Shown piece after piece: positions 3,833 to 63,414 of a stretch of DNA of 64,000 bases. Positions within the stretch are counted from its first letter, which is position 1. Every line of letters starts with the position of its first letter. The notes beneath the pieces are model-generated. The model did no database searches, was not told where the DNA came from, and saw only the letters and a program-made list of their open reading frames with translations. Both the position numbers and the translations under genes were made by a program. Source of the DNA: a virus; IMG/VR virus record IMGVR_UViG_3300013099_000002, positions 25,838 to 89,837 of that record; one strand, written 5' to 3'.

Positions 3833-4388
3833 TTAAACTACCAATAACCGAATCGACCTTCCCGTAAGTTAGTTCAACTTTATTGTTTACTGGTTCCTGT
3901 AGTATTAACGTGGCATCATCCACCATACCTAGAGCCTTACGCTCATTCTCAACACCGAACCGCATAAAATCTAACGCTTCCCTAACAGATAATTTATCTG
4001 GGTCTACCTTATCAATCTTAGCCATTGCCTTCATCATAACTTTACGAGACAAAGCTAAATGCCGTTGCCGTACTGCAAGCTCATCATTGATATTTTTTGC
4101 TTGTAGTTTCGCTATTGCCTTCTTCTTATTCCCAAGCAGTAAAGCTTCATCCACCGCATCTTGTCCTTCGGCAAACATCCCATTTAATTCTTCATACCAT
4201 TTTTCTTTTGCCGCCCGATTCTGCAAAGTACCAATGTTTAGCTTATGTTTAGCCGCCAACTTCAAAAAGGTCATGCTGTTTTTCTTTTCAAGATTGCATT
4301 TAAAGAAATCAGCTTTTATATCATCCCATGGTATCTTTGCAGTATAGGCATTTTTTACCCTATTTTTTTTGATTATCTTTATAGGCAT
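3777..4388 (-). CDS. terS: terminase small subunit (putative)
   Basis: Immediately upstream of terL; W..IK..F, LAAKH.L..GTL..RA.KEKW HTH-like N-terminus and helical body. Confidence 0.7.
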   Translation of the reverse strand: MPIKIIKKNRVKNAYTAKIPWDDIKADFFKCNLEKKNSMTFLKLAAKHKLNIGTLQNRAAKEKWYEELNGMFAEGQDAVDEALLLGNKKKAIAKLQAKNINDELAVRQRHLALSRKVMMKAMAKIDKVDPDKLSVREALDFMRFGVENERKALGMVDDATLILQEPVNNKVELTYGKVDSVIGSLIEVIQGDSGVFEEVEPAN

Positions 4389-4398
4389 ATTATCCCCG

Positions 4399-5028
4399 TT
4401 AAGCGTTTTTGTCTTTTCTTAATCTAGTAATGGTTTTCTCTAATCTGGCTCGGTTCAGCTCATTACCAACGAAAGACATATTATTATCTATACACGCTTG
4501 AGCCGTGTATCCCATACCACAACATAAGTCCATACCTAGCCCTCCATCAGCCGGTCTAAGCAACTTAAATACTTCTCTTGTACATTTGTACCCTTTCAAG
4601 TGATAAATGGGCGTAGCATCCAATGGCATCTTCCCTTCGGTATGGAAGAATATAATCTCCATTGGTAAGTTTTGCCCAGAATATACGGTTTCAATCTGAG
4701 TACAATAAGTCAATCCTGCCTCTTCAGCAAAATCAATTACTTTTTGAATCCACCGCTTACCATATTCGATAACCACCCAACCTTCGGTTTTATCTGCGGC
4801 ATGAGACAACACTGTTTTAAGGAATACATCCACATCGAAATTACCAGTTGAAGTGTCTATATTGTTCATCTTCTTATTCATGGTGTCCCAGTATTTTAAG
4901 TTACCAGAACCCCACGGAGGGTCTGAGTAATAAATATCTGCTTTACGGTTCCCGACAAGTGTAGCTATACCCTTCTCATCGTGAATATCTCCGTGTCGTA
5001 TTCTGTGCTTGCCTATATTTTTAATCAT
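4399..5028 (-). CDS. amino-DNA methyltransferase-like protein (beta class)
   Basis: Motif IV SDPPW followed by motif I DLCCGMG and GNEL. Confidence 0.8.
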   Translation of the reverse strand: MIKNIGKHRIRHGDIHDEKGIATLVGNRKADIYYSDPPWGSGNLKYWDTMNKKMNNIDTSTGNFDVDVFLKTVLSHAADKTEGWVVIEYGKRWIQKVIDFAEEAGLTYCTQIETVYSGQNLPMEIIFFHTEGKMPLDATPIYHLKGYKCTREVFKLLRPADGGLGMDLCCGMGYTAQACIDNNMSFVGNELNRARLEKTITRLRKDKNA

Positions 5029-5753
5029 ACCTTTTTGCCTTTACGTTTAATAGTTACACCTTTAGAATTCTTCGGTGCAATTGATTGCAATTTTTCTGCT
5101 TCATTAAAGTTCTTTTTAATCTGCAGTTGTTTTTTGGTTTCCCACGCTTTTGCATAGTCAGTATCCTCAAACAATTTGGAGAAACCGGTTACATGTTTAA
5201 GCTTTAATAGTTCTTCGGGTTCCATGCCCAACTCATTACAAATTTGAGCATCCTCCCAACCATTATCAAGCATTTCAAATACCATGCTGGACATACCGTT
5301 TACAGAATGCTTCCCCCGTGCCCTATTATGGCGAACTGTTGAGGCCATTCTGTCATTGATGTTTGAGTTGATTACCACCACCGGTAACTTACCCAAATTC
5401 ATTTCAGTAATATCCTTATTATTAAGCATAGTGAAGTATCTGTGAAACCCATCAACAATCACATAGGTATCAGTTTCTTCATCGTGTATGGTCACTACAG
5501 GCTGTGTATAACCATCATGCTTGATAGATGTATGCAATAATTTTAATTCAACGGAAGCAACGCTATTAGGGTTGTAATCGTTTGGCTTAACTTTCGCAAT
5601 ATCCACCCACCGAATTAAATCTACCGGCTGATGTTTTCGTGGAGAAATACTGTTATGCAAATATTCACGCAACTCATAAAGAAATGCATCTTTATCTTTT
5701 GCTGAATCGTAAGCCTCTTTTATTTCTTCTTTTAAGTGTTTTTTTATGCTCAT
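5025..5753 (-). CDS. ParB/Srx-domain protein, IbrB-like
   Basis: PNDYNPN, SI..DGYTQPVV, IVDGFHR, STVRHNRARG, then a short HTH (EDAQICNELGM). Confidence 0.85.
   Translation of the reverse strand: MSIKKHLKEEIKEAYDSAKDKDAFLYELREYLHNSISPRKHQPVDLIRWVDIAKVKPNDYNPNSVASVELKLLHTSIKHDGYTQPVVTIHDEETDTYVIVDGFHRYFTMLNNKDITEMNLGKLPVVVINSNINDRMASTVRHNRARGKHSVNGMSSMVFEMLDNGWEDAQICNELGMEPEELLKLKHVTGFSKLFEDTDYAKAWETKKQLQIKKNFNEAEKLQSIAPKNSKGVTIKRKGKKV
5076..5089. repeat. 14-bp near-palindrome (copy 2)
   Basis: TGCAATTGATTGCA exact, within ParB C-terminal tail. Confidence 0.95.
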
Positions 5754-6909
5754 ATTCTTTTAAATCCAAGATGTATTTATTGTTTACGTTATTAGGTCTT
5801 TCAACCCCACGAATGAAAGCTCTATATTCACGAACATCAGATATAGTTTCAAAATTACCCAACTTTGCCCCTGTATCATTAGTCATTACTGCAACTATAT
5901 TAGAGCGCAAATACAGGTCTCTAATTAATGGAGACTGATAGTATTTATCATGCCCCTCAAAATATTTTTTAAACTTCCCACGCACCTCAGAATCAGTAAC
6001 TAAATGCTTAACCAAATAGTCTCGGTATTCCATCCAATCCTTAAACATATAAGGTAATTGTTTAGGTGGAGAAATGCTTTCCTTCTGTAAATGACCTGCG
6101 GTATTTATCCCTTGCAATCGCTTGGTTAGTTTTTCCCAAACCTTCGGGTCAATCTCTTGTAGGATATAAAGATTCTGTATAGCAGTTTCATGGTGTAAAT
6201 TAGAAACCCTCATATTATTTACTGTAATACCATATTGATACATCCTATCGTACAGCTCACAATACTCCCACTTATTATCATGTATAGCCTTCCAAACATC
6301 TTTATATCCCCAATCGTAAATAGGGTAAAAAGTGAAATGGTTTAGCTTCTTGGTTAGTATCTTTCCCCATGTAATAAATTTATAAGTAACCGCACCAGTT
6401 AAGCCTAAGTAGCGTGCTGGTGATTCTTGGGTTCTTACACCCCCCAAATTAGCCGTAGATTGCCCTTTAAATTCTTTTCGGATAATGGCATCAAATAATT
6501 CATAAAACCTGTCTGTGCCGTAAGTATTCTCTTTAATACTTATAGGGTCTTTTGGATGCACCCAGTTTTCTTCTTCACCTTCCTTCCAACAATACAACCA
6601 AGGGTCAGTTGTTGAAGTCGAATTAGTTATCTTTATCGGCATCTGGAACCAATAAGGTTTTATCCTTGGGTCATGCATTACCTTTTTCATATAGGTTTGC
6701 ACAAAGCTCCATTCCGCTTCTTGGTCTATAAATATTACATTTAGTGGTAATCGTTTTCTTTCTTCGGCAACAATTAAGGCCAACTGTAAACAAATTGTGC
6801 TATCTTTTCCCCCCGAAAAACTTACTGTTATGTTTTCAAATTCATCATACAAGTATCGAATTCTATCTAATGCCGCCTCGTATACACTCTTATTAGTAAA
6901 AATTTTCAT
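5692..6909 (-). CDS. PAPS-reductase-like (PP-loop) protein, IbrA/DUF3440-like
   Basis: SFSGGKDS PP-loop, FIDQEAE, GVRTQES..R, YPIYDW...DVW, MRVS..HH. Confidence 0.85.
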   Translation of the reverse strand: MKIFTNKSVYEAALDRIRYLYDEFENITVSFSGGKDSTICLQLALIVAEERKRLPLNVIFIDQEAEWSFVQTYMKKVMHDPRIKPYWFQMPIKITNSTSTTDPWLYCWKEGEEENWVHPKDPISIKENTYGTDRFYELFDAIIRKEFKGQSTANLGGVRTQESPARYLGLTGAVTYKFITWGKILTKKLNHFTFYPIYDWGYKDVWKAIHDNKWEYCELYDRMYQYGITVNNMRVSNLHHETAIQNLYILQEIDPKVWEKLTKRLQGINTAGHLQKESISPPKQLPYMFKDWMEYRDYLVKHLVTDSEVRGKFKKYFEGHDKYYQSPLIRDLYLRSNIVAVMTNDTGAKLGNFETISDVREYRAFIRGVERPNNVNNKYILDLKEYEHKKTLKRRNKRGLRFSKR

Positions 6910-7288
6910 ACACTACCTTGGTATTTTTATTCTTATACATCGCTATTATTTTTGCCCCTGCTTTCAAGTGTGAGTTTAATGCCATTGGTGTTACGCTTGA
7001 ATAAATAGTATCAATCGAATTATCCGCAGCAAAAGACTTTATCCTTATTAATGTTTTTGCTAAGGCACCCCGACCTCTATATCTTGTTGTGACAAAATTA
7101 TGCATGATATTTCCAGTGGTATTTGAATAAGAAAAACAACAAACACCAACCAAAGTATTGCTACTGAATACCCCAAGCCATAAATCCCTTTTCCTGTATT
7201 GGAATGTTTGAGGCATCCCTACGAAAACAGAATATTTTTCAGCCTCATCAATAGTAATACTTTTTATCCGTAAATACCCCCGTTTCAT
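6893..7288 (-). CDS. GNAT-family acetyltransferase
   Basis: LVG..., FV...YRGRG acetyl-CoA binding motif A. Confidence 0.65.
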   Translation of the reverse strand: MKRGYLRIKSITIDEAEKYSVFVGMPQTFQYRKRDLWLGVFSSNTLVGVCCFSYSNTTGNIMHNFVTTRYRGRGALAKTLIRIKSFAADNSIDTIYSSVTPMALNSHLKAGAKIIAMYKNKNTKVVYENFY

Positions 7289-7575
7289 TTCTCCTTAGCC
7301 TTATTTATAAGTCGGGTATATGGTGAGCCATCGGGTCTATTAAGTGGGCAGCCCATAGTCCAGTAACGGTACCCATCTATAATAAGTATAATATACTGGG
7401 TTTTGCCAAACATTACCTTTTTACCATTCTTTCTTATGTACATCACCACGGCACAAAATAAGGCATCATCCTCCCAATTTTTTCTTAAAGTATAATAGTG
7501 AGGATTCTTTGGCATAGACTTAGCGAACGTCCATTTTAATTTTTCAAATATTGCACCAACCTCTGGATTATCCAT
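7285..7575 (-). CDS. conserved hypothetical protein
   Basis: W.FAKSMP..PH.Y...YWTMG.P motif; coupled within operon. Confidence 0.7.
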   Translation of the reverse strand: MDNPEVGAIFEKLKWTFAKSMPKNPHYYTLRKNWEDDALFCAVVMYIRKNGKKVMFGKTQYIILIIDGYRYWTMGCPLNRPDGSPYTRLINKAKEK

Positions 7576-8474: not shown

Positions 8475-8477
8475 CAG

Positions 8478-8491: not shown

Positions 8492-8493
8492 AA

Positions 8494-9035: not shown

Positions 9036-9038
9036 TTT

Positions 9039-15354: not shown

Positions 15355-16281
15355 TTATGTTTCTTTTTTATTCCACGTTATTTGAGCTGGGTATTTTCCA
15401 GAAAAACACTCAGATACAACTGGGCAGGTTTTTGCCCGTTTACAAAATGAAGTATTACATACACCATCAGGCATCTTGCCGTTACCCCGAAACTTTTTAA
15501 TCAGCTTCGCCTTCCGTGTAAATATTAAGGTAGTTGAATCATCCCTATGAACAGTGAATTCTTTGAAAGGTGAAAAGGCCGCATCTTTCAACCCCATCAG
15601 TTTTAATGATTCATCTTTACAACCAAACCCTTTACACACGTAAAGAATATTAGCCACCTCAGTATTTACCCTATCGTGAAGCTCTGTGGTGTCCTCAGCG
15701 ACTAAACGCATATAAAGGTTTGTCCTTATCCGATGTTCGGCTAAAGGGGCTACTAACGCTTTAAATGCATCCGAAGCCATGGTCTTAATTTCATAGATTC
15801 GATATTTAGGTTCTCCGGTAATAATCAAGGCATCAATGCCGCCTGATATTCCAGATATTTTTGATAAGGGTCTTGGTTCCTCATACTGCCAATTATGGTC
15901 AATACCAGATTTAGTAAAGCAATGGCCTTTTGTTGGTTTCCTACATAACTGCTTTATTTCACCACAATTTCTGCATACCCAATTACCCACCATAATATCT
16001 TCAAGATAAACCTCATTGATTCGTCTTTGTAAATCCTCCCCATGGTGGAATGTGGTTCTAAGTGAAGTCCCAATAAATTCATCCCTTCGTTTTTTGCCGG
16101 TAATATCTACTAAGCAATATTCCCTTGGGCAAAATTCCTTATCCCCTTTAGTCACATCAGAAGCGTGAATATTATGCATAGGTCTTGCTTCTTGAACACC
16201 TGCAATTTTTTCATGCAAAATCTTCTTTAAACTAAATGCATTTTTGTTTTTTAGTTTCTTAGTTATTTTTAATGGCATCAA
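15355..16281 (-). CDS. Cas4-like PD-(D/E)XK exonuclease
   Basis: HAS...CPR, G...H, GGID.L, YEIKT, C-terminal Cys cluster. Confidence 0.75.
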   Translation of the reverse strand: MMPLKITKKLKNKNAFSLKKILHEKIAGVQEARPMHNIHASDVTKGDKEFCPREYCLVDITGKKRRDEFIGTSLRTTFHHGEDLQRRINEVYLEDIMVGNWVCRNCGEIKQLCRKPTKGHCFTKSGIDHNWQYEEPRPLSKISGISGGIDALIITGEPKYRIYEIKTMASDAFKALVAPLAEHRIRTNLYMRLVAEDTTELHDRVNTEVANILYVCKGFGCKDESLKLMGLKDAAFSPFKEFTVHRDDSTTLIFTRKAKLIKKFRGNGKMPDGVCNTSFCKRAKTCPVVSECFSGKYPAQITWNKKET

Positions 16282-18183: not shown

Positions 18184-18660
18184 TTATTCTTTGTGAGTTG
18201 ATATTTCTGATTGTAGCTCTTCAATCTTGTCATCCACCCACGTTTTTGCAAATTCGTAAGTATCTTCAATTTCCTCATGTGAGCAAGGTACATGAAGCGA
18301 TACTTGCGCCTTTACATTTTCATAATTGCCGATATTAACGGTAAGCCCCAAACTTATACCCACATTTACTGTAGGCCCTACATAGTTTGAGGCATTGGCT
18401 AATTTAATCTGAATATTCTTCGTGGTGCCATCTGGATACTCAAGACTTACATTCCCAGTTGGTTCCTTCATGTTGAATATTTCGCCATCAGAAACTTCAT
18501 CACCATCAACCAACAATTTAGTTTCCTTAGATTGTTTAGCAATATCTTTGGTTTCTGGTTTCTTTGCAACGGTTTTTTTCGCTACAGGTTTTTGTTTTGC
18601 TTTTTTCGGTGCTTCTTCTTCTTCCGTGGCGGTACTTTTCTTTTTTATTTTTACTGGCAT
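18184..18660 (-). CDS. hypothetical protein
   Basis: V.ISLG.T.NIGNYEN.K..V motif; MPVKIKKK N-terminus. Confidence 0.75.
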   Translation of the reverse strand: MPVKIKKKSTATEEEEAPKKAKQKPVAKKTVAKKPETKDIAKQSKETKLLVDGDEVSDGEIFNMKEPTGNVSLEYPDGTTKNIQIKLANASNYVGPTVNVGISLGLTVNIGNYENVKAQVSLHVPCSHEEIEDTYEFAKTWVDDKIEELQSEISTHKE

Positions 18661-19146
18661 TTATTTCTCCCAATTATGGAACACAATTTTTGAGGCTTCT
18701 TTTAAATCCTGCTCGGCATCTAATTTAGCCCCACTCAATCCTCTCCTAATATCGGCAAAGGTACATAATAATTTTACTTGATTAACAGTGTAGTATTTAT
18801 TCCGTTTATCATCTTGAATAAAACCGGTAGGAATATCTTTATTTTTTATCCACAACCGGATAGTTTGTAGACCTCTACCAATTAAAGTACAGGCATCTTT
18901 TATGGAATAACATTCAAGGGTTTTTCTGCCGTGTAAATTTAATGTCACCACTTCAAAAGAATCAAACGGTTTTCTTGGTTTGGGTTTCCGTTTTGACTTC
19001 TTGGCATTTTCAAGGCGTACCTTTTCCCTATAATTTGGGTCGTTTTTATATCGTTCCCTTCGTTGCTCATTGAAATCCGCTTTATTGTCATCGTACCACT
19101 TTTTAAAGGGTTTCTTTTTTGGTCGTTTCTTAATTTTAACTGGCAT
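18661..19146 (-). CDS. MerR-like HTH DNA-binding protein
   Basis: YSIKDAC.LIGR..QTIR.W.....IP......R.YT..QV. Confidence 0.65.
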   Translation of the reverse strand: MPVKIKKRPKKKPFKKWYDDNKADFNEQRRERYKNDPNYREKVRLENAKKSKRKPKPRKPFDSFEVVTLNLHGRKTLECYSIKDACTLIGRGLQTIRLWIKNKDIPTGFIQDDKRNKYYTVNQVKLLCTFADIRRGLSGAKLDAEQDLKEASKIVFHNWEK

Positions 19147-20640: not shown

Positions 20641-21327
20641 TTATACGTCATCATCATATTGAGCTTCTTCATCATCATCATCAACATCCGGCTCCGCGCC
20701 AACAGTTAAGGAACCAAAGCCCTCATCACGAAGTTCTTGGGCTGTTTTGTAAGTCAAAATTTCTTGGTAATCATAAGGCATAGCTTCCTTATATTTTTTA
20801 CCCAAAACAGATAATGTTTTCTTCTGTACGAAGTCGAACATATCGCCAACACTTGCCGCTTTTTCACCGATACGCGAAACTTCAAAAGTACAACCAAGTA
20901 AACCTTTACGCTTGGTAGCAATTTTTTGAAGCTGTTTCAGTGTTTGACGTTTGGCTACAAAAAGTCGTCTTTCGTCTTTATGTACTGAGCCGTCTTTTTT
21001 GGAAGTCCATTCTGAGTGGTCAATAACCGTAAATACGCCAACTAATGAAGGTGTATCTCCACCCTCACAAATAGGGCAAGGTTCATCCTCACTGGTACAT
21101 GCATACCAATTTTGCCACGAACCGTTTAGATTTAATTGATGTTCCAGAAATGTAGTGTTGTCTAGCAGTCCATCTGGTAATAATTTACCGTCAAGAAATG
21201 TGATAGTTGTTTCAGCATCTTTTGGCATCCAGAATCTACGAATAAACCCCTCTTCCATTTGTTTTGCTTTTTCATCCGCAGCCGCCATTTGTTTTTGACT
21301 GGCCTTGCCTTTCTTCAAAAAACCCAT
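20641..21327 (-). CDS. single-stranded DNA-binding protein (gp32-like)
   Basis: RRFW, H......W....C......CPIC, acidic C-terminal tail; start reassigned to MGFLKK (AGGAG RBS). Confidence 0.75.
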   Translation of the reverse strand: MGFLKKGKASQKQMAAADEKAKQMEEGFIRRFWMPKDAETTITFLDGKLLPDGLLDNTTFLEHQLNLNGSWQNWYACTSEDEPCPICEGGDTPSLVGVFTVIDHSEWTSKKDGSVHKDERRLFVAKRQTLKQLQKIATKRKGLLGCTFEVSRIGEKAASVGDMFDFVQKKTLSVLGKKYKEAMPYDYQEILTYKTAQELRDEGFGSLTVGAEPDVDDDDEEAQYDDDV

Positions 21328-21664: not shown

Positions 21665-22635
21665 TTCTCATCCAGTGTTAAGTAGGGTTCAAGTGCTTCG
21701 TATATTTCCAGCTCGGTCATGTTTCCGGCATCATCCTGTTCTTCTGTTGGTATTAAGTGAATTATTGCAGAGTTCTTTAAAAACTTATCTAAGCCCTCTC
21801 TTGCCATGTTTCCTCCTTTACCATAGTCGTACAAGGTAATAACATCTAACGCGCCTCTAATACGCTCTATTTTCTGCTTACCCATACCGCAGGATAAACT
21901 GCACATCACATTTTTATAGACTTTTCGTATCTGAATAAAATCGAATACCGACTCACATAAAACTACGGTCATTTCGAGGTCTACCCATTCTTCTCCAAGC
22001 CACGGTAATTTATTCCAATGATTATTGTATTTATAGGCATTATACGAAGGCGTGGTGCCTTTTAAGATTGCTCGCCCATGCAATCCCATCAACTTCCCAT
22101 CAAAGTCTCTTAAAGGTATGCATACGCGCTTATATTTTGAATCGAACCTGAAATCAAGTTCGTGTATTTCTAGTGGTGTTAATCCACGGCTTTCTAGGTA
22201 TAACAAACCATCCTTGAAGAACTTTGCTTTCTTAAAGGACTCCAAGAATGATTCGGCAAATATCTTGGTTACAACTTTAGGTTTCACAGTCCCATTCTCA
22301 TAGTCTGGAATATCAAGTTCGGCATTTTCATTTTCGTCAGCAATCAGTTGCAAAGCCGTAGAAAAATCATAACCCTCATCTGAGGTTGCCCCTTCATGTT
22401 TTAAGTCGATAACCATATCCATTAAATCACCATGGGAGTTACAGCTAAAACAGTAAAATCTTGATTGTTCATTAGGTTTCTTTTCCACCCCGAATGAAGG
22501 GTGGTTGTCTACACCGCCTTCATGGAACCAAGGTGCAAAAACACAAGTGGCTAACACCCAATCATCCCTGTTTTGATTTTCGCATGGCTCAGAGCCTAAT
22601 GCTTTTAAAAATTTATGTATACGTTGCTCATCCAT
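21661..22635 (-). CDS. DNA primase (Zn finger + TOPRIM)
   Basis: C....H..G.D..PSF...CFSC, YL.SRG, VLCES.FD, YDY...G, DAG. Confidence 0.85.
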   Translation of the reverse strand: MDEQRIHKFLKALGSEPCENQNRDDWVLATCVFAPWFHEGGVDNHPSFGVEKKPNEQSRFYCFSCNSHGDLMDMVIDLKHEGATSDEGYDFSTALQLIADENENAELDIPDYENGTVKPKVVTKIFAESFLESFKKAKFFKDGLLYLESRGLTPLEIHELDFRFDSKYKRVCIPLRDFDGKLMGLHGRAILKGTTPSYNAYKYNNHWNKLPWLGEEWVDLEMTVVLCESVFDFIQIRKVYKNVMCSLSCGMGKQKIERIRGALDVITLYDYGKGGNMAREGLDKFLKNSAIIHLIPTEEQDDAGNMTELEIYEALEPYLTLDEK

Positions 22636-23053
22636 AACCGTTAGATATTCTCCATACAGTTGTTTTTCCTACACCTAATTTAGATGCAATAGCTCTAGTG
22701 GTTTTTCCCTCCTCTAATAATTTTTTTACTTCTGATTTTATTTTAGAAGTTTTGTATTTAGTTCTGGTGTAAGGTCTACGATTGTATGTTTGCTGACTAG
22801 GTGTAGCCCAGCGACAATTATCTTTTGAGTAGCCCTTACTGTTATCCCGTCTATCAAGAGATAACCCTTTTGGGCAGGTACCCATATCTTCAAAGTAATT
22901 GGAAAAAATCAACCACCTATTGCAGACAGCTATACCTCGCCCACCATAATCTTTATCATTTTTATCAGCACACCTAGCTTTCATTTTTTGCCATCTTGAA
23001 TATTCAGGGTTACGTTTACCATTTAACCTTGACATACCGTGTGTTTTTTTCAT
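22628..23053 (-). CDS. HNH homing endonuclease with C-terminal HTH
   Basis: THG.S, W..MKARC, YGGRGI.VC.RW, SLDRRDNSKGY..DNCRWAT, terminal HTH. Confidence 0.88.
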   Translation of the reverse strand: MKKTHGMSRLNGKRNPEYSRWQKMKARCADKNDKDYGGRGIAVCNRWLIFSNYFEDMGTCPKGLSLDRRDNSKGYSKDNCRWATPSQQTYNRRPYTRTKYKTSKIKSEVKKLLEEGKTTRAIASKLGVGKTTVWRISNGYG

Positions 23054-23166
23054 AATAACTCCAAAAAAAAAGGACAAGTTGCCAGTACCCACTCATCCCG
23101 ATTCTGAACATCACACGGTTCAGAACCGAGAGCTTGCAGGAATTTTACAATCCGTTGTTCATCCAT
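23050..23166 (-). pseudogene. truncated duplicate of primase N-terminus (38 aa)
   Basis: Hand translation MDEQRIVKFLQALGSEPCDVQNRDEWVLATCPFFLELL* versus primase MDEQRIHKFLKALGSEPCENQNRDDWVLATCVF. Confidence 0.9.
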
Positions 23167-23642
23167 TATGCAAGGGCATTAACCTTCACAGTTCTGGCAT
23201 TAAGTCGCTCAATTTGTGTGACTGCTTTTATTTCATTTGGTGTCAGGTATTGTTTTAATTCAGTCAATTTAAAAGAAATCAGTTTGAGTACCAATGCTTC
23301 ATCAATATTATCCAGCAAATCAATAATTCTTGACTTATCAGTAATCGTGGTTTTATTTCCCTTCATCCCAATATCAGCTAAATAATCATCAGTGGTTATC
23401 ACCGCTTTTTTATCAGCATCATATTGCTCATCAGCCAACACCAATAATTCTGCCTTAGCAGTTGAATAAGTTTCCTGTAATGGCATTAAGGCTTGAGCGT
23501 GGCGTTCCATTGCTTTTTGAGTTACGCCCATCACATCCACCAATTCTTTGATAGCATCAGATTGTATTGCCGCTTTTGCTTTTGAAGCAAGTTTCTTTTT
23601 AGATGTGGTTTTTGTTTTCTTCTTATTAATTGTTACTGGCAT
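23166..23642 (-). CDS. hypothetical protein
   Basis: 158-aa ORF after promoter; MPVTINKKK N-terminus. Confidence 0.8.
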   Translation of the reverse strand: MPVTINKKKTKTTSKKKLASKAKAAIQSDAIKELVDVMGVTQKAMERHAQALMPLQETYSTAKAELLVLADEQYDADKKAVITTDDYLADIGMKGNKTTITDKSRIIDLLDNIDEALVLKLISFKLTELKQYLTPNEIKAVTQIERLNARTVKVNALA

Positions 23643-25804: not shown

Positions 25805-26791
25805 TTATTCATCATCCTCTTCCCAGTCAAACTTCTTACCATAGTTCTTGTTAGTTGCAATGGTTTCTTCCGTCACCGAAAAGCTTGGAATTGCCATCTT
25901 AAATTTAAGTAAGTATGGAATCATCGGAGTAACAGGTGAATTGAAGGCTGCAAAGCCGTTCTCGCAGTGCTGAGTGAATTCATACCATTTTCCGATAAGG
26001 ATACCAAGGGTCTTGTATTTATCCTCTTCTATCGTCACCATAAGCGTATCCAGCATTTTCTTTTCAACACCTATTACAGTCGGCACCGTTTTTAACTTAT
26101 CCTTGTAGCATACGGTCATGCATTTTCTCCAATAATCAGAAACCCTTTTCGGGTTATATTCTGTTTCGGAAAATTCTTCAATCAGTTGGTCAATAGTATA
26201 ATCTTCGGATGAATCAACAAAGTCTTTATATAATTCATTAACCGTATAATTGCTTTTAGGTTTTACTATTGTTTTAGTTTCTTTTATTTTTCCTTTATTT
26301 AGTTTATTTCCCGAATCAGCTTTAATTTTCGGAAATGTCTTTAATTGATTCTCCGAAGGTGAATCCATGTTTATCTTATCTGTTTTCTTATTTGTAGTTA
26401 TAACTGGTATAGGTTGTTGCGTTTCAACTTTTGCATTGTTGCTTTTGCCACTATCCATTGTTGCATTTCCAACAATGGTGAATTCCGTGTAATAGGTATC
26501 TGAAAACGAGTACCAAAGTGTCCGGTCATAAGTGTGTTTGTTGTAGTTTCCGGTTATCAATACCTCTTGTTTTTTTAAGCTGGCTAGTATCCTCTTAACC
26601 TGTTCATACGTCCAAAAGTGATACAGTACCGCATAGTATTTTTTTGAGTTATATGTCCAAGCTTTCCCTTCATGTATATTCTTATTATCTGCTTTATTTT
26701 TTATTATCCAGAATTTAAAGTTTTCCAACATGATAGCTTCATTAACCCCGAATCTTGCCGCAAGGTCTGTATTAAACAATAAGCAATCCAT
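25805..26791 (-). CDS. replication initiator / replisome organiser
   Basis: F...LA..FGVNEAI.L....FW...N......G..W.YNS...F.....L..L.....L..GNYN...DRT.WY winged-helix N-terminus. Confidence 0.75.
   Translation of the reverse strand: MDCLLFNTDLAARFGVNEAIMLENFKFWIIKNKADNKNIHEGKAWTYNSKKYYAVLYHFWTYEQVKRILASLKKQEVLITGNYNKHTYDRTLWYSFSDTYYTEFTIVGNATMDSGKSNNAKVETQQPIPVITTNKKTDKINMDSPSENQLKTFPKIKADSGNKLNKGKIKETKTIVKPKSNYTVNELYKDFVDSSEDYTIDQLIEEFSETEYNPKRVSDYWRKCMTVCYKDKLKTVPTVIGVEKKMLDTLMVTIEEDKYKTLGILIGKWYEFTQHCENGFAAFNSPVTPMIPYLLKFKMAIPSFSVTEETIATNKNYGKKFDWEEDDE
26414..26478. repeat. candidate origin iterons
   Basis: TTGTTGC at 26414, 26436 and 26458 (22-bp period); perfect 9-bp inverted repeat 26455-26478. 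Confidence 0.5.
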
Positions 26792-27368: not shown

Positions 27369-27397
27369 ATATTACCGTATAATCTTTAAATTGTCAA
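27369..27397 (-). promoter_or_regulatory. sigma70-type promoter
   Basis: TTGACA-17nt-TAATAT. Confidence 0.65.
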
Positions 27398-28647
27398 ATT
27401 GTTACTAGATATTGTTTCACCGCTTTATAAACCATACTTGTCAGGTCAGCATGGCTTACGGCAGGATAATAAACTGTTAGCTCTTCATCGGTTTCTGTTT
27501 TCGGGAACTTATCCAACTCAATAATATTCTCCCAAATAACATCAAAAGGTTTTCCTTCAATGCAATCAATTTCATATTCCACATAACCGAAGTTTTCAAG
27601 TATACCTACCATTAACTCATTAGCAGATTCACAGCTTGTTATTCCATTAAAATCAAATATGTCATCAATCCTTCCAGCCCTGTACAGCTCTTTAGGGAGT
27701 ATTTCGGCATCATTGGTGGTCATTATGGTAAGAACTCTTGAATCACGTTCCTGAAGCCACCACAGGACTGCAGATAGCATTCGTGAACTAACCCCCGAAT
27801 CATCCCCAGCTTTAATTGATTTTTCAATCTCATCAAACAACAATACGCATGGCTGGCAGTTATCGACAATAGCTAATGCATTGGCAAGGTTTTCTTCTGA
27901 TTCACCTACATATTTTCCCATCAATGCCCCAAGGTCAATTCTGTAAAGTGGAACACCTAATTGATTAGCCAAATATTTAGCTCCCAAAGTTTTACCAGCT
28001 CCAGGAATACCATCAAATAATAAGCCTTTTGGAACCAGTACCGGCTCAACACCATAATCAACAAATATTTTTCCTTCAATTGCCAACCATTTCTTTAAAA
28101 ATGAAGGTGGTTTGTAATAATCGTACTTAGTTGAAACTTGTTGTATACCTTGCAATCGCCCAACGTAAATTCTACGGGTTTCCATTATCGCCCGTGGAGT
28201 CAATTCCTTAAATTTAGTTTGGGCTAACCGGCATATTTCCCCAACATCTTTTAAACACAATCCGCTTAGTGTTGCCGCCAAGGGTTGTACAGTTTCCTCA
28301 TCAGTTAAATTAGATAAAAAATCAAGTAACATACCTTGAGGTAGTTGCACCACACCGGCATCAAACATTAAGGGGCTAGAATCGCTTGGATTGATTACTA
28401 TGAGGGTTTTTTCTGAGTCAACCATACATTCATAAGCCATATAGTAATTTACGTTCTCAGGATGCAATAAATAGAAATACTGGGTTTCGGGTTCAAAGTC
28501 CTCTTGTTTGATTTTTTTAATATGGTTTTCGTCAATAAGCATAACCGATTCATCTACAATGTAAGATAAAACATCCCCTACATTTACAGTGTCATCGGTT
28601 GTTACCTTGATAAGTGGAAGTCCTGATTTTAATGATAGTTCAAGCAT
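27394..28647 (-). CDS. AAA+ ATPase (Ycf46-like)
   Basis: GLLFDGIPGAGKT, L.RIDLG.L.GKYVGESE, LLFDEIEK, TTN....LP.EL.RAGR.D. Confidence 0.88.
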   Translation of the reverse strand: MLELSLKSGLPLIKVTTDDTVNVGDVLSYIVDESVMLIDENHIKKIKQEDFEPETQYFYLLHPENVNYYMAYECMVDSEKTLIVINPSDSSPLMFDAGVVQLPQGMLLDFLSNLTDEETVQPLAATLSGLCLKDVGEICRLAQTKFKELTPRAIMETRRIYVGRLQGIQQVSTKYDYYKPPSFLKKWLAIEGKIFVDYGVEPVLVPKGLLFDGIPGAGKTLGAKYLANQLGVPLYRIDLGALMGKYVGESEENLANALAIVDNCQPCVLLFDEIEKSIKAGDDSGVSSRMLSAVLWWLQERDSRVLTIMTTNDAEILPKELYRAGRIDDIFDFNGITSCESANELMVGILENFGYVEYEIDCIEGKPFDVIWENIIELDKFPKTETDEELTVYYPAVSHADLTSMVYKAVKQYLVTI

Positions 28648-56586: not shown

Positions 56587-56597
56587 ATTTGTATCTC

Positions 56598-57933: not shown

Positions 57934-59259
57934 TTAGTGCCCAACAATGCTATCTAATGAAGTGCCTTCCCATAGAGAATCATCAGCATCATTTTTCTTC
58001 ATTGTGCGAGATTGATTGCCCAAGCTTTCACTGTGTACAACATCACTACCAACAACAACAGTACCATTAACAGCTTCATCAGCAGACTTAGCCACTTTTT
58101 CTACTGCACTTATTCTGGTCGTTAATTCTTCGTTCGATTTTTCAACCGCAACTAAAGAAGTTTTTACACCAGATAATCCATCTTCAATCTGTGTCTGCAT
58201 TGACTTCAATAAAGTCATCAATTCAGAGTTAGAATCGTCCTTGCTCACGGTTTCATCTTTATCAGTATCCGTAGATTCTGTTTCAGATTCACCACTCTCA
58301 TCACCTTCACCCTTCGTTACGTTTGGGTTCAAAATGTCTTGGTCAATATCCCCAGCAACAGCTTCATTGATTGCAGATGCTTCCTCAGCGGCTACATCAG
58401 CTTCACTTTTTTGGGTTGTTTCTTCCGTACCTGCATCTTCAGTTGCGGCTGTATCAGCTACTTCATCTTGCGCGGTTTCGGTTGTTTGTGAAGATTCTTC
58501 ACTGGTTTGTTCGGCATCAGCGGTTGCTTCATCACTATTAGCTTCATCAGCAGAAGTTTCATCTTCAGTAGTTTCGGCAACAGTTTCAGTTTCACCTTCT
58601 TCTTTAGCAATCAAATTACCTTCGAGTTTAAAAACCACTTCCGGTAAATCTGTAGCTAATGCCGTCACGAATGACCCAAATTCGCCAATAGCTTTAGCCA
58701 TATCCGCACGAACATCAGTCGAGTTATCAGCTTTGCGTAGGATATTATGGAAAGTATCCATCAATGCATCGGTAGCAGTAAATACTCCAGGCATGAATCC
58801 CGCACCAGCAATATTTTCTGCAAAAGAAATACTGTCTGTATAAGGTTGGAATGATTTTTGTACATTGCTAACCATAGCTACAACGTCATCACTCATTTTA
58901 AAAGCCATAACTTCATCTTCATTGAAGTCATCTACTTGTTTCAAAATCAAAGCATCTTCACGCTCGATTGTATTATCAGTTTTAAAACCTTTCTCAACAA
59001 GAATCGGTAAAAGCTTATCAGCATCTTCTTTACGAATAGCTAATGCCGTAACCGTAGGCACTTGTTTTGAAGGCTCGCCATCACGTTTAAAAACGCTGCT
59101 CAAATTGAACATAGGTAAACTCCCATCTTTTGAATTATCATTATCGGACTTCGTTATTCTAAACGGTATCCGGTTTGCTGGTCTAGTGACCAAAGAAATA
59201 AAAGATACTTTCGCATCCTCCAACTCCTTAGCGTTCATCTTAATTTTAGGCAACTTCAA
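57934..59259 (-). CDS. scaffold protein with N-terminal XkdF-like ISLV..PAN segment
   Basis: ELEDAKVSFISLVTRPAN, long acidic linker, coiled-coil C-terminus; precedes MCP. Confidence 0.7.
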   Translation of the reverse strand: MKLPKIKMNAKELEDAKVSFISLVTRPANRIPFRITKSDNDNSKDGSLPMFNLSSVFKRDGEPSKQVPTVTALAIRKEDADKLLPILVEKGFKTDNTIEREDALILKQVDDFNEDEVMAFKMSDDVVAMVSNVQKSFQPYTDSISFAENIAGAGFMPGVFTATDALMDTFHNILRKADNSTDVRADMAKAIGEFGSFVTALATDLPEVVFKLEGNLIAKEEGETETVAETTEDETSADEANSDEATADAEQTSEESSQTTETAQDEVADTAATEDAGTEETTQKSEADVAAEEASAINEAVAGDIDQDILNPNVTKGEGDESGESETESTDTDKDETVSKDDSNSELMTLLKSMQTQIEDGLSGVKTSLVAVEKSNEELTTRISAVEKVAKSADEAVNGTVVVGSDVVHSESLGNQSRTMKKNDADDSLWEGTSLDSIVGH

Positions 59260-59836
59260 ATCCCTCCATACTTTCTACGATAGAAAATTTATGGGTATGC
59301 CCTTCAGCTTCCCCAGTAACCGTAGCTTTAGAAATGGTGTGAACATGTCCATTGACTATGTTTGTACTCCCACCAAGAAAATTTCCCTGCTCATCAAACT
59401 TAACTGTAAATTCGTGCGTGTGTTCAGTGTTATCAGATAGGGTTTCACCGATAATAGTATCTGGCACTTCCAATTCAATAACCTTGGATGTTGCCTTTAC
59501 CAGTGCTTCCATAGAAAAGCCGTTTAATTCGCCATTCTTAATCAGTGCCCAAATCTCTGGGTCTGGAACGTGAACCCCAACAACCCAAGCACCATCTACA
59601 AAGATAGGGTCATCGGCATTGGTTATATAAGACTCTACTACAATAGAACCTGTTTCTTCATTATCGTGATTAGTATCAATCGCTGTAAGAGAGCCGTGTT
59701 TCATAAACTCATGTGCCATTTTTACGACTTCTTTTTCAGTCATAAAATCGCCCTGAGAATCTGGCACGTTTGGAGCATAAACTTCCCCATACACCACTTG
59801 CAATTCGTCATCTAATTTTTTCAGAAGCATTATCAT
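59246..59836 (-). CDS. XkdF-like prohead serine protease
   Basis: Q.VYGEVYAP...DSQGDFM, ID.NH, VVESYI, GAWV.G, W..IK.GE.NGFS. Confidence 0.85.
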   Translation of the reverse strand: MIMLLKKLDDELQVVYGEVYAPNVPDSQGDFMTEKEVVKMAHEFMKHGSLTAIDTNHDNEETGSIVVESYITNADDPIFVDGAWVVGVHVPDPEIWALIKNGELNGFSMEALVKATSKVIELEVPDTIIGETLSDNTEHTHEFTVKFDEQGNFLGGSTNIVNGHVHTISKATVTGEAEGHTHKFSIVESMEGFEVA

Positions 59837-59866
59837 GGTTTAAATTTACTACCTCTTTTTAGTTAT

Positions 59867-59880
59867 TGCAATCAATTGCA
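59867..59880. repeat. 14-bp near-palindrome (copy 13)
   Basis: TGCAATCAATTGCA exact, intergenic. Confidence 0.95.
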
Positions 59881-59914
59881 CAAAGTTTTTTAATTTAATT
59901 TAAAGTAAATATTA

Positions 59915-60076
59915 TTATTCAGTGCTAATTCTATTTTTTAAATCTTTTTTTGCATCCTTTATTGCCTTTATAACTTCAGTGGTTTCTTCTTTGGATTCTA
60001 ATTCAGCAATCCATTCAATAATTTCCTCTTCTGAAGAATACCTAGTTACAGGTGAATCTATTAAAAGAATATCCAT
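59915..60076 (-). CDS. small acidic protein coupled to MuF gene (53 aa, not in ORF track)
   Basis: Hand translation MDILLIDSPVTRYSSEEEIIEWIAELESKEETTEVIKAIKDAKKDLKNRISTE; TAATG overlap, GGGG RBS. Confidence 0.7.
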   Translation of the reverse strand: MDILLIDSPVTRYSSEEEIIEWIAELESKEETTEVIKAIKDAKKDLKNRISTE

Positions 60077-61584
60077 TACAATATACCCCCTCTATTTATT
60101 TCCTCTACTATCTCTTTCATCCCATTCAAGTAATGACTTGACGGCTGGGTTGCTAAAATAGCCTCATACTCAACTACACCTAAATCACGAAGAACTAAAT
60201 TAACCCCGTGCCAATGATTACTTTGTGCTTCTGCTACGGTTATTTTCCCTTTCAATAAAGTATCCGCTTTTTTATAAACCAAATCGGAAATTTTATCTGT
60301 TTTTTCTATGAATCCTTTGGGTTGTAACATCCTACCTAAGTATTCATTCCCTTGATTGCTTGCAGCAACAATAGTCCCATTTATATTACCTGCTATGCTG
60401 AAATCAGCAGGTGATAATGATTGTGAGCTGGGGTGGTTGTGAACCAACACCACATCCTCTGCTTCCTTCATAGCAGTCATTTCTTCAGGACTAAAAGCAA
60501 CTGCGTTTTTCTCACCACGTTTAGCTATTATAGCAGAGCCATTTTTATCATAAACCCAAGCATACTCAATGCTACCTGCTTGTTCTCTTATACCATTACT
60601 GGTAACAAATTCCCTACCCTTATCATAAAAACCAGTATCCGCTACGTCAAGTAAAGGTACCACTTCTCTAACAGTTTGTGCTTCTACTGCTTCAGTCGCA
60701 ATAGGTAATGGAATAGTTGGTACAGATAATGGAGCCTCTTTATCAGTTCTTCTTAATACGCCTCGGCATCTTGGATGATAAGGAGGGGTATCCCAGCCAG
60801 CATTTATAAGTTCACCGTCTGACATACTTTGGAGTTTTTTAATGCCCTGCTTTGATTGATTAGGCCACGGTGCCATAGACTTTAATTGTTCTGGGTCAGT
60901 AACATCTAATACCCCCTCTAATCTTAATTTAGCAGTATCTACTGGGAACACTTTTCCATTCATTGCACTGCAAACAGGACAAGTCCTACCATCCATTACT
61001 TCTGAAACCATAAAAGAAGTGTGTCCTAGTAATGATGCTTCAGTAGTAAATCCCCAACTTGCTAATCTGGAGGTGTGCAAACTGGAACCAATATCTATCA
61101 TGCTTTTACCGTTGCTACTCACATTTGAAGTAAAGCTACGGACAAAACCACTTGTTGCTCCTTTTTGAGTAACAAACTCTGATTCTTTTTGAGCCACCTC
61201 TTCTAAATCTAAAAGCCTGTGGGCACTTTTCTTAATCAATTCGGTAGTGTTCAACACAATCATTCTAATAATCGTGTCAGTGGCCTTTTTAAGCTGTTCT
61301 GGTGGTGGTTTTCCTGCAAAACCAGTGTCCTTTGCCGCAGAAAAATCCCGTGCCCCGAATAAAATAGCCTGCATCCCTATCAATTCAATAAACTGTCTTT
61401 GAGCTATAACAGCCTTGGTAAGATTGATGCTATTTATTTCATCACGGGCATTATTGAAATCACCTTTACGAGCCGCACTAGCCGCCCGTTTTACTTTAGG
61501 TAAATATTCTTTCTTGGTCGCGGTGTCCAATTTCTTTGCTAATGAGAACTCCAAAACCAAGAATGCTTCATTCTTGATTGCCAT
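60076..61584 (-). CDS. MuF-like minor head protein with C-terminal JAB/MPN-like domain
   Basis: D.RTCPVC..M.G, PPYHPRCR (MuF); then E...(x)n...HNHPS..SLS..D. Confidence 0.78.
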   Translation of the reverse strand: MAIKNEAFLVLEFSLAKKLDTATKKEYLPKVKRAASAARKGDFNNARDEINSINLTKAVIAQRQFIELIGMQAILFGARDFSAAKDTGFAGKPPPEQLKKATDTIIRMIVLNTTELIKKSAHRLLDLEEVAQKESEFVTQKGATSGFVRSFTSNVSSNGKSMIDIGSSLHTSRLASWGFTTEASLLGHTSFMVSEVMDGRTCPVCSAMNGKVFPVDTAKLRLEGVLDVTDPEQLKSMAPWPNQSKQGIKKLQSMSDGELINAGWDTPPYHPRCRGVLRRTDKEAPLSVPTIPLPIATEAVEAQTVREVVPLLDVADTGFYDKGREFVTSNGIREQAGSIEYAWVYDKNGSAIIAKRGEKNAVAFSPEEMTAMKEAEDVVLVHNHPSSQSLSPADFSIAGNINGTIVAASNQGNEYLGRMLQPKGFIEKTDKISDLVYKKADTLLKGKITVAEAQSNHWHGVNLVLRDLGVVEYEAILATQPSSHYLNGMKEIVEEINRGGIL

Positions 61585-61587
61585 TTT

Positions 61588-63414
61588 TTAAGTCCCGTGA
61601 TCTTGGTCGCAGCATTCATGTTTCATCATTAAAATATCTGTAGCCGCACCCATCAATTCAGTTGCACCTTCAGGGTCATTATCAAAACCTGACATTAATT
61701 TAATGGAAACGTAAGCATCAAATAAAGTTCTTTGGTCATCAGGCATTGACTTTATAACTTCATAAAGTGGTAGGGGGTCAATTTTAGTATCAGCCCCAGA
61801 ACTATAAGCCGCCCAAGTTCCGGCAAGCTCAATCATTTCCATAGGGTCAATCTTAGAAACCTTCTGTGTTCCTTGTGGGGTTGATTGTCTACCCAATGCA
61901 TTGATTATATCAGCGTTATCTTCTTCCCCCTCTACCGGCTCCTCAGTGGGCTTAACAACCGGTTCACTTGCCACACCTTCGGGTATTTTAAGATTCATGT
62001 TCGTTACTTCATTAATAGCCTTAATAAATCCTTCTTTATCTAATGCATCTTTTGAAAGTTCAATTCCTTTCAGTTGTTGTGTGGCATCACGAACTGCTAA
62101 CGGTAATGAGCGGAAAGTAAATCCTGGAGCTATATGCTTCATAATAGTGTTGTTCATTATCTCATCGAATTCAGACCGTTCTGGTTGAAATACTTGAGCT
62201 TCTGCAACAGTGTAAGAAGCGAAGGCGGTAGCAAAAGAATAATCATCTGCTTTACCTACGAACATTGGAGGTAATCGAAAACTAGACCTTACCCGTTTTT
62301 CACAACGAGAATCATAATTCTCAAACATCGAGTCTTGTTGTCGTTCCGCACCGAACCTTTCTACGGTCATCCGAACATTACCAGCAGAATCTAATGAGCC
62401 ACCGGTTGATTGAACTTCAATAATAGCGGCTCTATGCTTGCTTGCCCCTTTACCAGATAAGTAAGTGTTTAATTGTTTTCTTACAGGTTCCGTTAATTCG
62501 CCACCTTGGATAGCAATAATAGCTGGAGGTAATCCACCGGCATTAAAGAAATCGAGATTTAATTCTTCGGCTTTTCTGGAACCCAATATTGAAGGTATCT
62601 GATTAATCCATCTTGGTAAACCATAAGGACTTGTAACATCACGAATAGGGTAAAAATGTATAACTTCCGTAGCTCTATCTTCTACTGGTAATTTCTGACC
62701 TTGTTCAGCCCAAATACCAGTCCATTTATTTAAGTCCCGACTTGCATTAAATTCTTTAAAGAAAATACTTTTATCACCAATCTTTTGAACAAATCTACGT
62801 TCCCGTTTAATGATAGTTACGTTTTGTTCAGAACCGAACCTCATAATAGTTACGGAAACTGGAACAGGGTCATCCAATTTAAGCAGTCTCATACTTACCG
62901 ATTCTAAAGCTTTGGCAAAAACAATATCACCACTAATAGACCGCAATACTTCCAAATAAGAATTACCAGAAGCTTCTTGGTCTCTACGGAGTTCTCTGCG
63001 AACAGTAATAAATGATTTAGTTGGAAAAATCTCATCAAAGAATTCAGTGATTCCTTCCGCTTCTTTTTTCTCAGCATCCGTTTGTTCTTCGCCACCATTT
63101 GAAGCAGTAACTTCATACCCAGTGCCATCAATGTTTACTTCCATTGCCGCAATACACTGACCAAGTGCATTATTTTCTTGGCAAAAAGATGATAAGGTAC
63201 TTGGATTAAATGGAGGTTTTAATACTTTGGCATTAGGGCTTGATTCAGCATCAAAATAATCTAAAGAAAAAATATCATCAATCAATAATGCATTAGATTG
63301 AAGAACATCACCTTCAGCTTTAGATACTTTTTTGGCTTTAACTAATGTGACAGATGACTGAGTGCCCATGGCATTGCCAACCTCATCATCCTTCTTTTTA
63401 ATTGTGACAGGCAT
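61588..63414 (-). CDS. portal protein (PBSX-like)
   Basis: GN.YLEV.R, EVIHF, YGLPRW, N..FF..GG.P, FRLPP..VG. Confidence 0.88.
   Translation of the reverse strand: MPVTIKKKDDEVGNAMGTQSSVTLVKAKKVSKAEGDVLQSNALLIDDIFSLDYFDAESSPNAKVLKPPFNPSTLSSFCQENNALGQCIAAMEVNIDGTGYEVTASNGGEEQTDAEKKEAEGITEFFDEIFPTKSFITVRRELRRDQEASGNSYLEVLRSISGDIVFAKALESVSMRLLKLDDPVPVSVTIMRFGSEQNVTIIKRERRFVQKIGDKSIFFKEFNASRDLNKWTGIWAEQGQKLPVEDRATEVIHFYPIRDVTSPYGLPRWINQIPSILGSRKAEELNLDFFNAGGLPPAIIAIQGGELTEPVRKQLNTYLSGKGASKHRAAIIEVQSTGGSLDSAGNVRMTVERFGAERQQDSMFENYDSRCEKRVRSSFRLPPMFVGKADDYSFATAFASYTVAEAQVFQPERSEFDEIMNNTIMKHIAPGFTFRSLPLAVRDATQQLKGIELSKDALDKEGFIKAINEVTNMNLKIPEGVASEPVVKPTEEPVEGEEDNADIINALGRQSTPQGTQKVSKIDPMEMIELAGTWAAYSSGADTKIDPLPLYEVIKSMPDDQRTLFDAYVSIKLMSGFDNDPEGATELMGAATDILMMKHECCDQDHGT

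Follow-up and report, generated by a model that had tools for sequence, protein, structure and literature searches.

The stretch of DNA considered here, which will be referred to as the window, comprises 64,000 nucleotides (record positions 25838–89837) of the IMG/VR virus record IMGVR_UViG_3300013099_000002, and our subject is a short N-terminal peptide of the general form MP[VIL][KT]I.K[KR], hereafter the tag, that is shared by several otherwise unrelated proteins of this phage. The record as a whole is 89,837 bp long, with direct terminal repeats and a GC content of 38%; nearly all of its genes lie on the minus strand and the genome is of the siphovirus type. Based upon its large terminase subunit (TerL), portal and replication genes, its distant kin are Vibrio phages of the SIO-2/VHS1/PG28 type, Stenotrophomonas phage DLP5 and Rhodobacter phage RcZahn. 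In blastn searches, the TerL gene (window positions 1940–3811) matched annotated TerL genes of Vibrio and Stenotrophomonas phages with 65% nucleotide identity; with its start as chosen, its product gave no PHROG match at E 1e-3. The functional assignments of window genes are based upon Pfam and PHROGs. The genomes compared with that of this phage (G000; locus L278) include its closest relative (G001), a 79.7-kb contig in which the orthologues of the tagged proteins show 50–84% protein identity, a distant clade of two genomes (G002 and G003) whose portal is 42% identical, an uncultured relative (G006; locus L194) of 61.5% GC, and the cultured phages PG28 (48% GC), DLP5 (58%) and RcZahn (61%). 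Gene starts in these relatives were obtained with a simple caller, and the key starts were checked against orthologue alignments and Shine-Dalgarno (SD) sites. When the nuclease of Table 1 was used as a query in the genome collection, no prophage relatives were found.

As the first-pass annotation of this DNA had reported, six genes of the window begin with the tag; all are on the minus strand and each stands behind an SD-like site. Their products are the portal, the proteins p23642 and p18660, a helix-turn-helix (HTH) DNA-binding protein, a Cas4/RecB-like exonuclease and a putative small terminase subunit (TerS). A seventh carrier, a stand-alone protein with the Ia domain of NAD-dependent ligase, has its start at genome position 19851, beyond the window. 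The seven carriers all belong to the DNA-transaction proteins and are otherwise unrelated to each other.

In the six-frame translation of the window, the core [VIL][KT]I.K[KR] occurs seven times, and six of these occurrences stand directly after Met-Pro at the start of a gene, while the Pro-containing motif has no internal occurrence in the proteins. Position-specific residue frequencies predict 0.006 carriers compared to the 7 observed, and in 20,000 column shuffles there were never more than two. By the strict pattern nine carriers are found in this genome, the highest number among the genomes examined. The register of the tag is fixed from Met1, and since the residue at position 2 is small, removal of the initiator Met is predicted; methionine aminopeptidase cleaves Met before a small residue. 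Residues 9–40 of the seven carriers have a Lys plus Arg content of 0.24, compared to 0.11 in the other proteins of the phage (p 1e-4), and they contain more disorder-promoting and fewer hydrophobic residues. The tag thus sits at the tip of basic, disorder-prone tails, an arrangement typical of linear motifs that end a flexible tether. An A-rich bias at start codons, which the first-pass annotation had raised as the alternative to a functional peptide, was rejected as the explanation based upon the column-shuffle expectation, which the observed number far exceeds, the freedom of third codon positions and the presence of the same peptide in GC-rich relatives, the last two of which are described below.

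Table 1. Coordinates, N-terminal sequences and assignments of the tagged proteins, the candidate readers and a possible degenerate copy (window positions unless stated otherwise).
Feature	Coordinates	Strand	Length (aa)	N-terminus	Assignment and remarks
Portal	61588..63414	-	608	MPVTIKKK (63391-63414)	PHROG portal, E 1.6e-19
p23642	23166..23642	-	158	MPVTINKK	between DnaB and primase; Lys/Thr-rich linker, helical C-terminal domain
HTH DNA-binding protein	18661..19146	-	161	MPVKIKKR	phrog_19880 transcriptional regulator, E 7e-19
p18660	18184..18660	-	158	MPVKIKKK	phrog_25619; adjoins RecA/UvsX-like recombinase
Cas4/RecB-like exonuclease	15355..16278	-	307	MPLKITKK	phrog_2506 exonuclease, E 1.4e-43
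Putative TerS	3777..4388	-	203	MPIKIIKK	PHROG TerS, E 7e-4 (weak), and gene order; directly upstream of TerL
NAD-ligase Ia-domain protein, stand-alone	L278:19459-19851 (outside window)		131	MPVIIKRRKK	Pfam Nlig-Ia, E 2e-23
gp32-like SSB candidate	20641..21327	-	228	MGFLKKGKAS	phrog_14578 SSB, E 4.5e-6 (weak)
Tandem AAA ATPase	27394..28647	-	417		PF00004, E 1e-25; p97/Cdc48 D2, E 5e-28
Scaffold-like head protein	57934..59259	-		MPKIKMN if start is TTG 59253	

Among the seven copies of the tag, codon positions 1 and 2 are 78% identical, compared to 43% for position 3, and the DNA upstream of the different copies is unrelated. When the carriers were compared with their orthologues in the closest relative, codons 2–8 included 21 identical, 15 synonymously changed and 13 non-synonymously changed codons, whereas the corresponding numbers for codons 9–15 were 11, 5 and 33 (Fisher p 1e-4). 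Every one of these orthologues has retained the tag, which in p23642 and p18660 reads MPVTITKKK and MPVTIKKK, respectively, while the residues that follow it diverge. In relatives of 58–62% GC the tag persists as MPVNIKKK, MPVSLKKH, MPLKISTKK and MGVKIG. The synonymous drift within the tag, together with the excess of non-synonymous changes just after it, indicates that the target of selection is the peptide, not the DNA or A-rich codons, as had been proposed earlier from the differing codons of the window copies. A cassette acting as DNA or RNA (viz. an operator, a recombination boundary or a RegA-like translational operator) was also considered, and it was rejected because the upstream sequences are unconserved, the third positions are free and the codons used by the GC-rich relatives differ.

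The carriers differ in how widely their tagged starts extend. The portal orthologues begin with MPVTIKQK in G001 and MSVTITKK in locus L002, and with MAETTKLKT and MGVKIGATK in distant clades. For the nuclease, the first-pass annotation had placed the start at the TTG at 16281; the tag is read from the ATG at 16278, and the TTG merely adds one Met. Its orthologues begin with MPLKIIKK in G001 and with MVTKFKK or MKAKFKK in the distant clade. The TerS orthologue of G001, which is 50% identical overall, starts with MPVTIVQK, and the PG28 protein at the TerS position starts with MALRVLGVPKVK. The HTH protein begins with MPVKVKKI in G001 and is mostly untagged in other lineages (1/19 tagged). The ligase-Ia protein, which has no ligase catalytic domain attached to it, begins with MPVTIVRKKK in G001.

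For p23642 no Pfam or PHROG match was obtained, and an atlas search led to DUF7173 and Mu Gam-like proteins; in its family alignment (A4) the linker that follows the tag varies greatly in length before the conserved domain. An open reading frame of ~140–154 aa (amino acids) lies between p23642 and the primase gene (window 22628–23092) and has no counterpart in G001. The protein p18660 consists, after the tag, of a long charged linker and a conserved C-terminal domain of ~60 aa; a word-index search for its homologues gave only 5 proteins, and its family is tagged in every whole genome examined. In G006 the p18660 orthologue (ATG 6464, MPVNIKKKSE) is preceded by ~180 stop-free in-frame codons (~6464–7007), and this open stretch may be an overlapping upstream gene or an effect of the GC-rich sequence.

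Two further proteins of the window had been associated with the tag. The scaffold-like head protein would begin with MPKIKMN if its start were the TTG at 59253, and this start is plausible because a GGAGG precedes it by 9 nt, compared to just 3 nt for the TTG at 59259; its G001 orthologue is identical over MKLPKIKMNAKEL. As position 3 is without a hydrophobic residue, we count this protein only as a possible degenerate copy. The IbrB-like ParB protein had been described as ending in VTIKRK; this sequence is present, but it stands four residues before the C-terminus (...GVTIKRKGKKV*) and is not terminal.

To examine the distribution of the tag among related phages, 80 loci centred on the AAA ATPase of the group (56 clusters at 70% identity, with 38–71% GC) were compared and their proteins were clustered into families. 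Three families were tagged in these loci, viz. p23642-like proteins (43/52), p18660-like proteins (13/18) and a family of ~260-aa proteins resembling proteins that bind single-stranded DNA (SSBs; 19/43, with many near-matches), in contrast to 0/78 for the AAA ATPase, 2/55 for the primase and 6/69 for DnaB, which served as control families. The three tagged families, which are unrelated to each other, share, in one register, the consensus M-[A/P/G]-[L/V/I]-[K/T]-[I/F/L]-x-K-K, and a small residue is present at position 2 in 87–100% of their members. With the same gene caller, the frequency of the tag was 3.8% in these loci and 0.35% in 118 unrelated viral contigs, a difference of ~10-fold (p 9e-14).

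Similar starts are found throughout the relatives. In G002 and G003, MAIKLKT, MGIKLKT and MALKLNK begin three unrelated proteins, and the p18660 orthologue begins with MPVKKLSIKK. In PG28, MA[LI]x[IV] begins at least 11 of the 114 annotated proteins, and in SIO-2 MG[VL][NQ]I is present on several proteins. Four DLP5 proteins, among them the portal and the p18660 orthologue, begin with MGVK[IML]; RcZahn has MPLKISTKK, MAVKVKSK and MAIIIKKK; and G006 has MPVNIKKK, MPVKLIQK, MPVNLKLR and, on a RecA-like protein, MPVSLKKH. These comparisons indicate that the tag is a general property of a large group of siphoviruses of 70–130 kb, seen across about 75 lineages of the SIO-2/PG28, DLP5 and RcZahn types and independent of base composition over 38–66% GC. 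They also indicate that its ancestral carriers are the three families of the replication/recombination module, whereas portal and TerS are lineage-specific additions. The tag switches families by lineage: the RecA-like protein carries it in G006, the portal, TerS and nuclease in this phage and G001, and the portal in DLP5. In the present phage the tag has been spread to the portal, TerS, Cas4-like nuclease, HTH protein and ligase-Ia-domain protein, and what the window shows is therefore an old feature that has been expanded here and is unusually uniform. The first-pass annotation had proposed a short docking, targeting or degron signal that recruits packaging and DNA-processing proteins to a common hub. 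This proposal is supported in part, in that a peptide-level signal under selection is present on tethers on DNA-handling proteins, but the carriers do not form a set defined by packaging and DNA processing.

The family-specific distribution also bears upon the possibility that the tag acts at the time of translation, as a nascent-chain or early-elongation enhancer like the artificial peptide MSKIK, in which case it would assist ribosomes in starting on genes whose Lys-rich 5' regions are difficult. The register of the tag is fixed from the start codon, and K-I-K after Met resembles SKIK, whose effect is reported to depend upon the peptide and not the codons (PMC10192921, PMC11669330, PMC12551147). 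However, the most abundant proteins (major capsid and tail) are untagged while low-copy proteins are tagged, family specificity is maintained over long distances (43/52 compared to 0/78 and 2/55), variants with Thr, Asn or Gln are without K-I-K, and the GC-rich relatives keep the tag without A-rich codons. We regard this explanation as very improbable.

A scan of the whole collection with a DNA pattern gave 119 matches, mostly internal to one conserved protein or due to chance; it revealed no other genome with multiple copies, and the families that truly begin with MPV[KT]I numbered only two, both unrelated. A search of the literature found no description of the motif. Separately, proteins of ~45–70 aa that begin with MPV[KT]I.KKG.Y.V.TP.G.K behind good SD sites are present in unrelated contigs (L038, L041, L072, L078, L089, L107, L142), where the peptide apparently forms the first strand of a small fold, and a family of ~660 aa starting with MPVKIDKKKD/R is present in unrelated contigs of 36–45% GC (L037, L050, L062, L066, L099, L124, L133, L134, L143, L149). 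Another type of repeated start was observed upstream of the AAA gene in L233, L236, L239, L242, L247, L253 and L274, where two to four paralogues of ~350–370 aa all begin with MALLFMDSFDH, with a second set of paralogues beside them that begins with MAITLRTFASG; such starts belong to N-terminal modules that are homologous, and they are distinct from the tag.

Seven otherwise unrelated proteins with one peptide in one register are probably recognized by one shared partner, and we infer that the tag is read in trans. The partner that we prefer is suggested by the third ancestral family. Its members (~230–270 aa; alignment A5) begin with the consensus M-A-[LVI]-[KTS]-[FW]-x-K-K-G-A, of which MGFLKKGKAS, the start of the window member, is a shortened form (MA-phi-x-[FW]-x-K-K, where phi is hydrophobic), and they share the invariant residues H63, C77, C84 and C87. 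Distant homologues of the family are annotated as proteins that bind single-stranded DNA (ssDNA). In hhalign comparisons with gp32 of phage T4, its His and its three Cys are aligned with the gp32 block ...NHGFKKNGKW...C...CPVCQ, whose His and Cys residues we take to be the zinc ligands of gp32, and ~30 N-terminal residues precede the core in the SSB-like family, as they do in gp32. The core of gp32 holds a buried zinc finger, and its N-terminal domain, in which the sequence KRKST is essential, binds to the core of the next molecule on the ssDNA and thereby gives rise to cooperative binding (PMC12893549). The SSB-like proteins may constitute a divergent, unannotated family of gp32-like SSBs that is typical of this group of phages.

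We propose that the tag is a docking peptide that acts in trans and is read, as our first choice, by the core of this gp32-like SSB, and we assign to this proposal, which is based upon analogy with gp32, a probability of about one in three. Removal of Met would leave a free N-terminus consisting of a small residue (Pro here) followed by hydrophobic-x-hydrophobic-x-Lys-Lys on a flexible basic tail, through which one common partner, part of the machinery for replication, recombination and packaging, would bind unrelated proteins. If that partner were the SSB-like core, the N-terminal peptide of the SSB itself would dock there, as that of gp32 does on the neighbouring core, and accessory proteins that copy the peptide would be inserted into, or recruited to, SSB-coated DNA. 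The copiers would be p23642 and p18660, encoded beside DnaB and beside the recombinase, respectively; the present lineage would add to them the nuclease, HTH protein, ligase-Ia protein, TerS and portal. Docking on the SSB core is preferred because the tag of the SSB-like family occupies the position of the gp32 cooperativity peptide, and because p23642 and p18660 adjoin the genes for DnaB and primase and for the RecA/UvsX-like recombinase, respectively, places in which one would look for factors that have to act on DNA coated with SSB.

A number of observations weigh against this proposal. The alignment of A5 with T4 gp32 is weak (residues ~30–88 on gp32 31–91, E 0.0016, probability 16%), and no sequence match in Pfam or the PDB was obtained for any of the three universal tagged families, including the SSB-like one. 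Neither this family nor MGFLKKGKAS has the gp32 motif (Lys/Arg)3(Ser/Thr)2 near residue 3, and the start of the SSB in this phage, MGFLKKGK, differs from MPV[KT]IKKK. In T4, other replication proteins bind the acidic C-terminal domain of gp32 and not the site of its N-terminal peptide (PMC12893549). Lastly, the matching of tags within genomes, which for p23642-like and SSB-like proteins counts in favour of the proposal, is real but small. Within one genome, the tags of p23642-like and of SSB-like proteins agree at 1.69 of 6 residues, compared to 1.19 when genomes were shuffled (p 0.0006), and those of p23642-like and p18660-like proteins at 1.92 compared to 1.39 (p 0.04), but the comparison of SSB-like with p18660-like proteins was not significant in the 56 lineage clusters, and in the same clusters position 2 shows no concerted choice of residue within a genome. 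Strongly lineage-specific, concerted tags, which nine genomes had suggested, were rejected in view of the modest effect in these 56 clusters.

These last results also bear upon a different explanation, that the tag has no common reader and is a cis-acting N-terminal arm of each protein, serving in nucleic-acid binding or in self-association through beta-strand pairing and reached by repeated convergence. All of the carriers bind or process DNA, Lys-rich tails follow the tag, the equivalent peptide of gp32 serves in homotypic binding, and the consensus is broad and not sharply lineage-specific, with position 2 varying independently within genomes, all of which a cis-acting arm would accommodate. 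A generic DNA-binding tail, however, needs neither a register fixed from Met1 nor a small residue at position 2 nor two alternating hydrophobic residues, and neither seven near-identical tags in one genome nor the transfer of the tag to new families such as portal and TerS is expected from independent functions in cis. We consider such arms unlikely, though a rival to be taken seriously.

The second candidate reader is the AAA ATPase of the window, which the first-pass annotation had named as a possible hub. This protein consists of a degenerate D1-like AAA+ module (residues 1–195) followed by an active classical AAA module, in which the Walker A (GIPGAGKT), Walker B (LLFDEIE), pore loop (GKYVGESE) and second region of homology (SRH; YRAGRID) motifs are invariant or nearly so in 62 homologues. 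Among proteins of solved structure, the D2 domains of p97/Cdc48 are nearest to it in sequence. Its AlphaFold2 model has a pLDDT (predicted local distance difference test) of 92, as have residues 1–195 when folded alone. In Foldseek searches, ~530 columns of the whole model were aligned to the tandem proteins Rix7, Cdc48 D1-D2 and Drg1, and the N-domain alone, which is without a Walker A motif, matched only AAA+ modules (Z 6–8.6, E down to 2e-4). Based upon this alignment with tandem unfoldases and the exclusively AAA+ matches of an N-domain lacking Walker A, the models place the ATPase in the class of polypeptide-threading machines with a pseudo-D1 and an active D2.

The tag could then be an engagement signal for this Cdc48-like ATPase, in which case the free N-terminus and its tail would enter the axial pore and tagged DNA-bound proteins would be extracted, unfolded or recycled in a ubiquitin-independent manner. 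The Walker A and B motifs are intact, as are the aromatic KYVG pore loop and the arginines of the SRH, the protein resembles over its whole length substrate-threading tandem unfoldases with its degenerate AAA+ N-domain, and the combination of a tag and an unstructured tail is the layout that unfoldases need. In all tagged lineages the gene for the ATPase lies in the same module, the full-length AAA protein and the p18660 family are found in the same set of cultured phages, and none of the 78 AAA proteins is itself tagged. A precedent is provided by phage lambda O, whose N-terminal degron TNTAKILNFGR binds inside the axial channel of ClpX, which is open (PMC12723719). The AAA+ hub suggested earlier is a genuine Cdc48-like translocase candidate found in every tagged lineage, but the co-occurrence is fully confounded by common descent; a relative without the ATPase was searched for and none was found. 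No partner protease and no direct link of the ATPase to these substrates are evident, and its invariant pore loop offers no handle for co-variation. As a reader it is our second choice, and a rather doubtful one. In the boldest form of the general idea, a portable N-terminal address peptide would wire replication, recombination and, in this phage, packaging to one hub, with the AAA protein acting as a ubiquitin-free, tag-directed segregase that pulls tagged proteins, including the SSB, off DNA by their N-termini, so that the cooperativity peptide of the SSB would double as a handle; we think it quite unlikely that this full scheme holds.

The lambda O precedent also raises the possibility that the tag is an N-terminal degron of the N-motif type for a host AAA+ protease such as ClpXP, by which the carriers would be turned over in a timed manner. 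ClpX reads three classes of N-terminal degrons, of which that of lambda O, a phage replication protein, is the archetype, and a reader conserved among hosts would fit the breadth of the consensus, which is shared by phages whose hosts differ. The tags present, as ClpX N-motifs do, a free N-terminus on an unstructured segment (Met1 register, small position 2 and basic, disorder-prone tails), and their succession of small/hydrophobic, hydrophobic, Lys and hydrophobic residues is loosely like TAKI in TNTAKI. Set against N-motif 1, PVKI, AIKL and GVKI resemble TAKI, but PVTI, PVNI and GVQI are without the Lys, and many copies have Thr, Asn, Gln or Ser at the basic position (e.g. MPVTI, MPVNI, MGVQI). 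There is also no obvious logic in the degradation of a portal, a TerS or an SSB. A host degron is therefore an improbable account of the tag.

Short terminal peptides that link many proteins to one hub organize much of cellular DNA metabolism, as illustrated by SSB tails, clamp-binding motifs and degrons, and in phages such hub peptides are known for only a few model systems. The tag described here is a statistically solid natural example with a defined consensus, with cultured relatives (SIO-2, PG28, DLP5 and RcZahn) and with two concrete candidate readers encoded next to tagged genes. If it is read in trans, it would explain how replication and recombination are coupled to packaging in a large and poorly studied group of phages, it would provide a first function for a phage Cdc48-like ATPase or for the N-terminus of a gp32-like SSB, and it would constitute a compact and transferable recruitment tag.

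Of the known systems with which the tag may be compared, the N-terminal cooperativity (B) domain of T4 gp32, whose LAST motif is KRKST (residues 3–7), is likewise a case of a phage SSB that begins with a basic peptide; there too a flexible segment leads to a zinc-containing ssDNA-binding core, and the peptide docks in trans on another core. It differs in sequence, (K/R)3(S/T)2 in gp32 compared to phi-x-phi-x-K-K after a small residue here, and in that the peptide in these phages also marks two or more further families unrelated to the SSB, and seven proteins of the present phage, portal and TerS included, whereas the partners of T4 gp32 use its acidic C-terminal domain. The clamp-binding tails shared by gp43, gp33 and gp55 of T4 and the C-terminal tips of SSBs are likewise examples of one short terminal peptide that brings unrelated proteins to a common DNA-bound hub, but those peptides are C-terminal and acidic or aromatic; no sliding clamp was identified among the genes annotated here. 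Capsid targeting sequences of the T4 type are also N-terminal peptides, borne by proteins that enter the head and cut off there by the prohead protease; the majority of the tag's carriers are proteins of replication or recombination. The N-motif degrons of ClpX are also located at the extreme N-terminus, with a mixture of hydrophobic residues and Lys and an unstructured stretch after it, but the phage studied here encodes its own AAA protein of the classical, Cdc48-like clade and not of the ClpX type, and its tag is common to a defined set of families and in many copies lacks the basic residue. The SKIK tag is a peptide of four to five residues containing K-I-K directly after Met, and it too is reported to act at the peptide level; it is artificial and acts on the ribosome, whereas the natural tag is specific to certain families, is often without K-I-K and is not found on the genes of highest expression.

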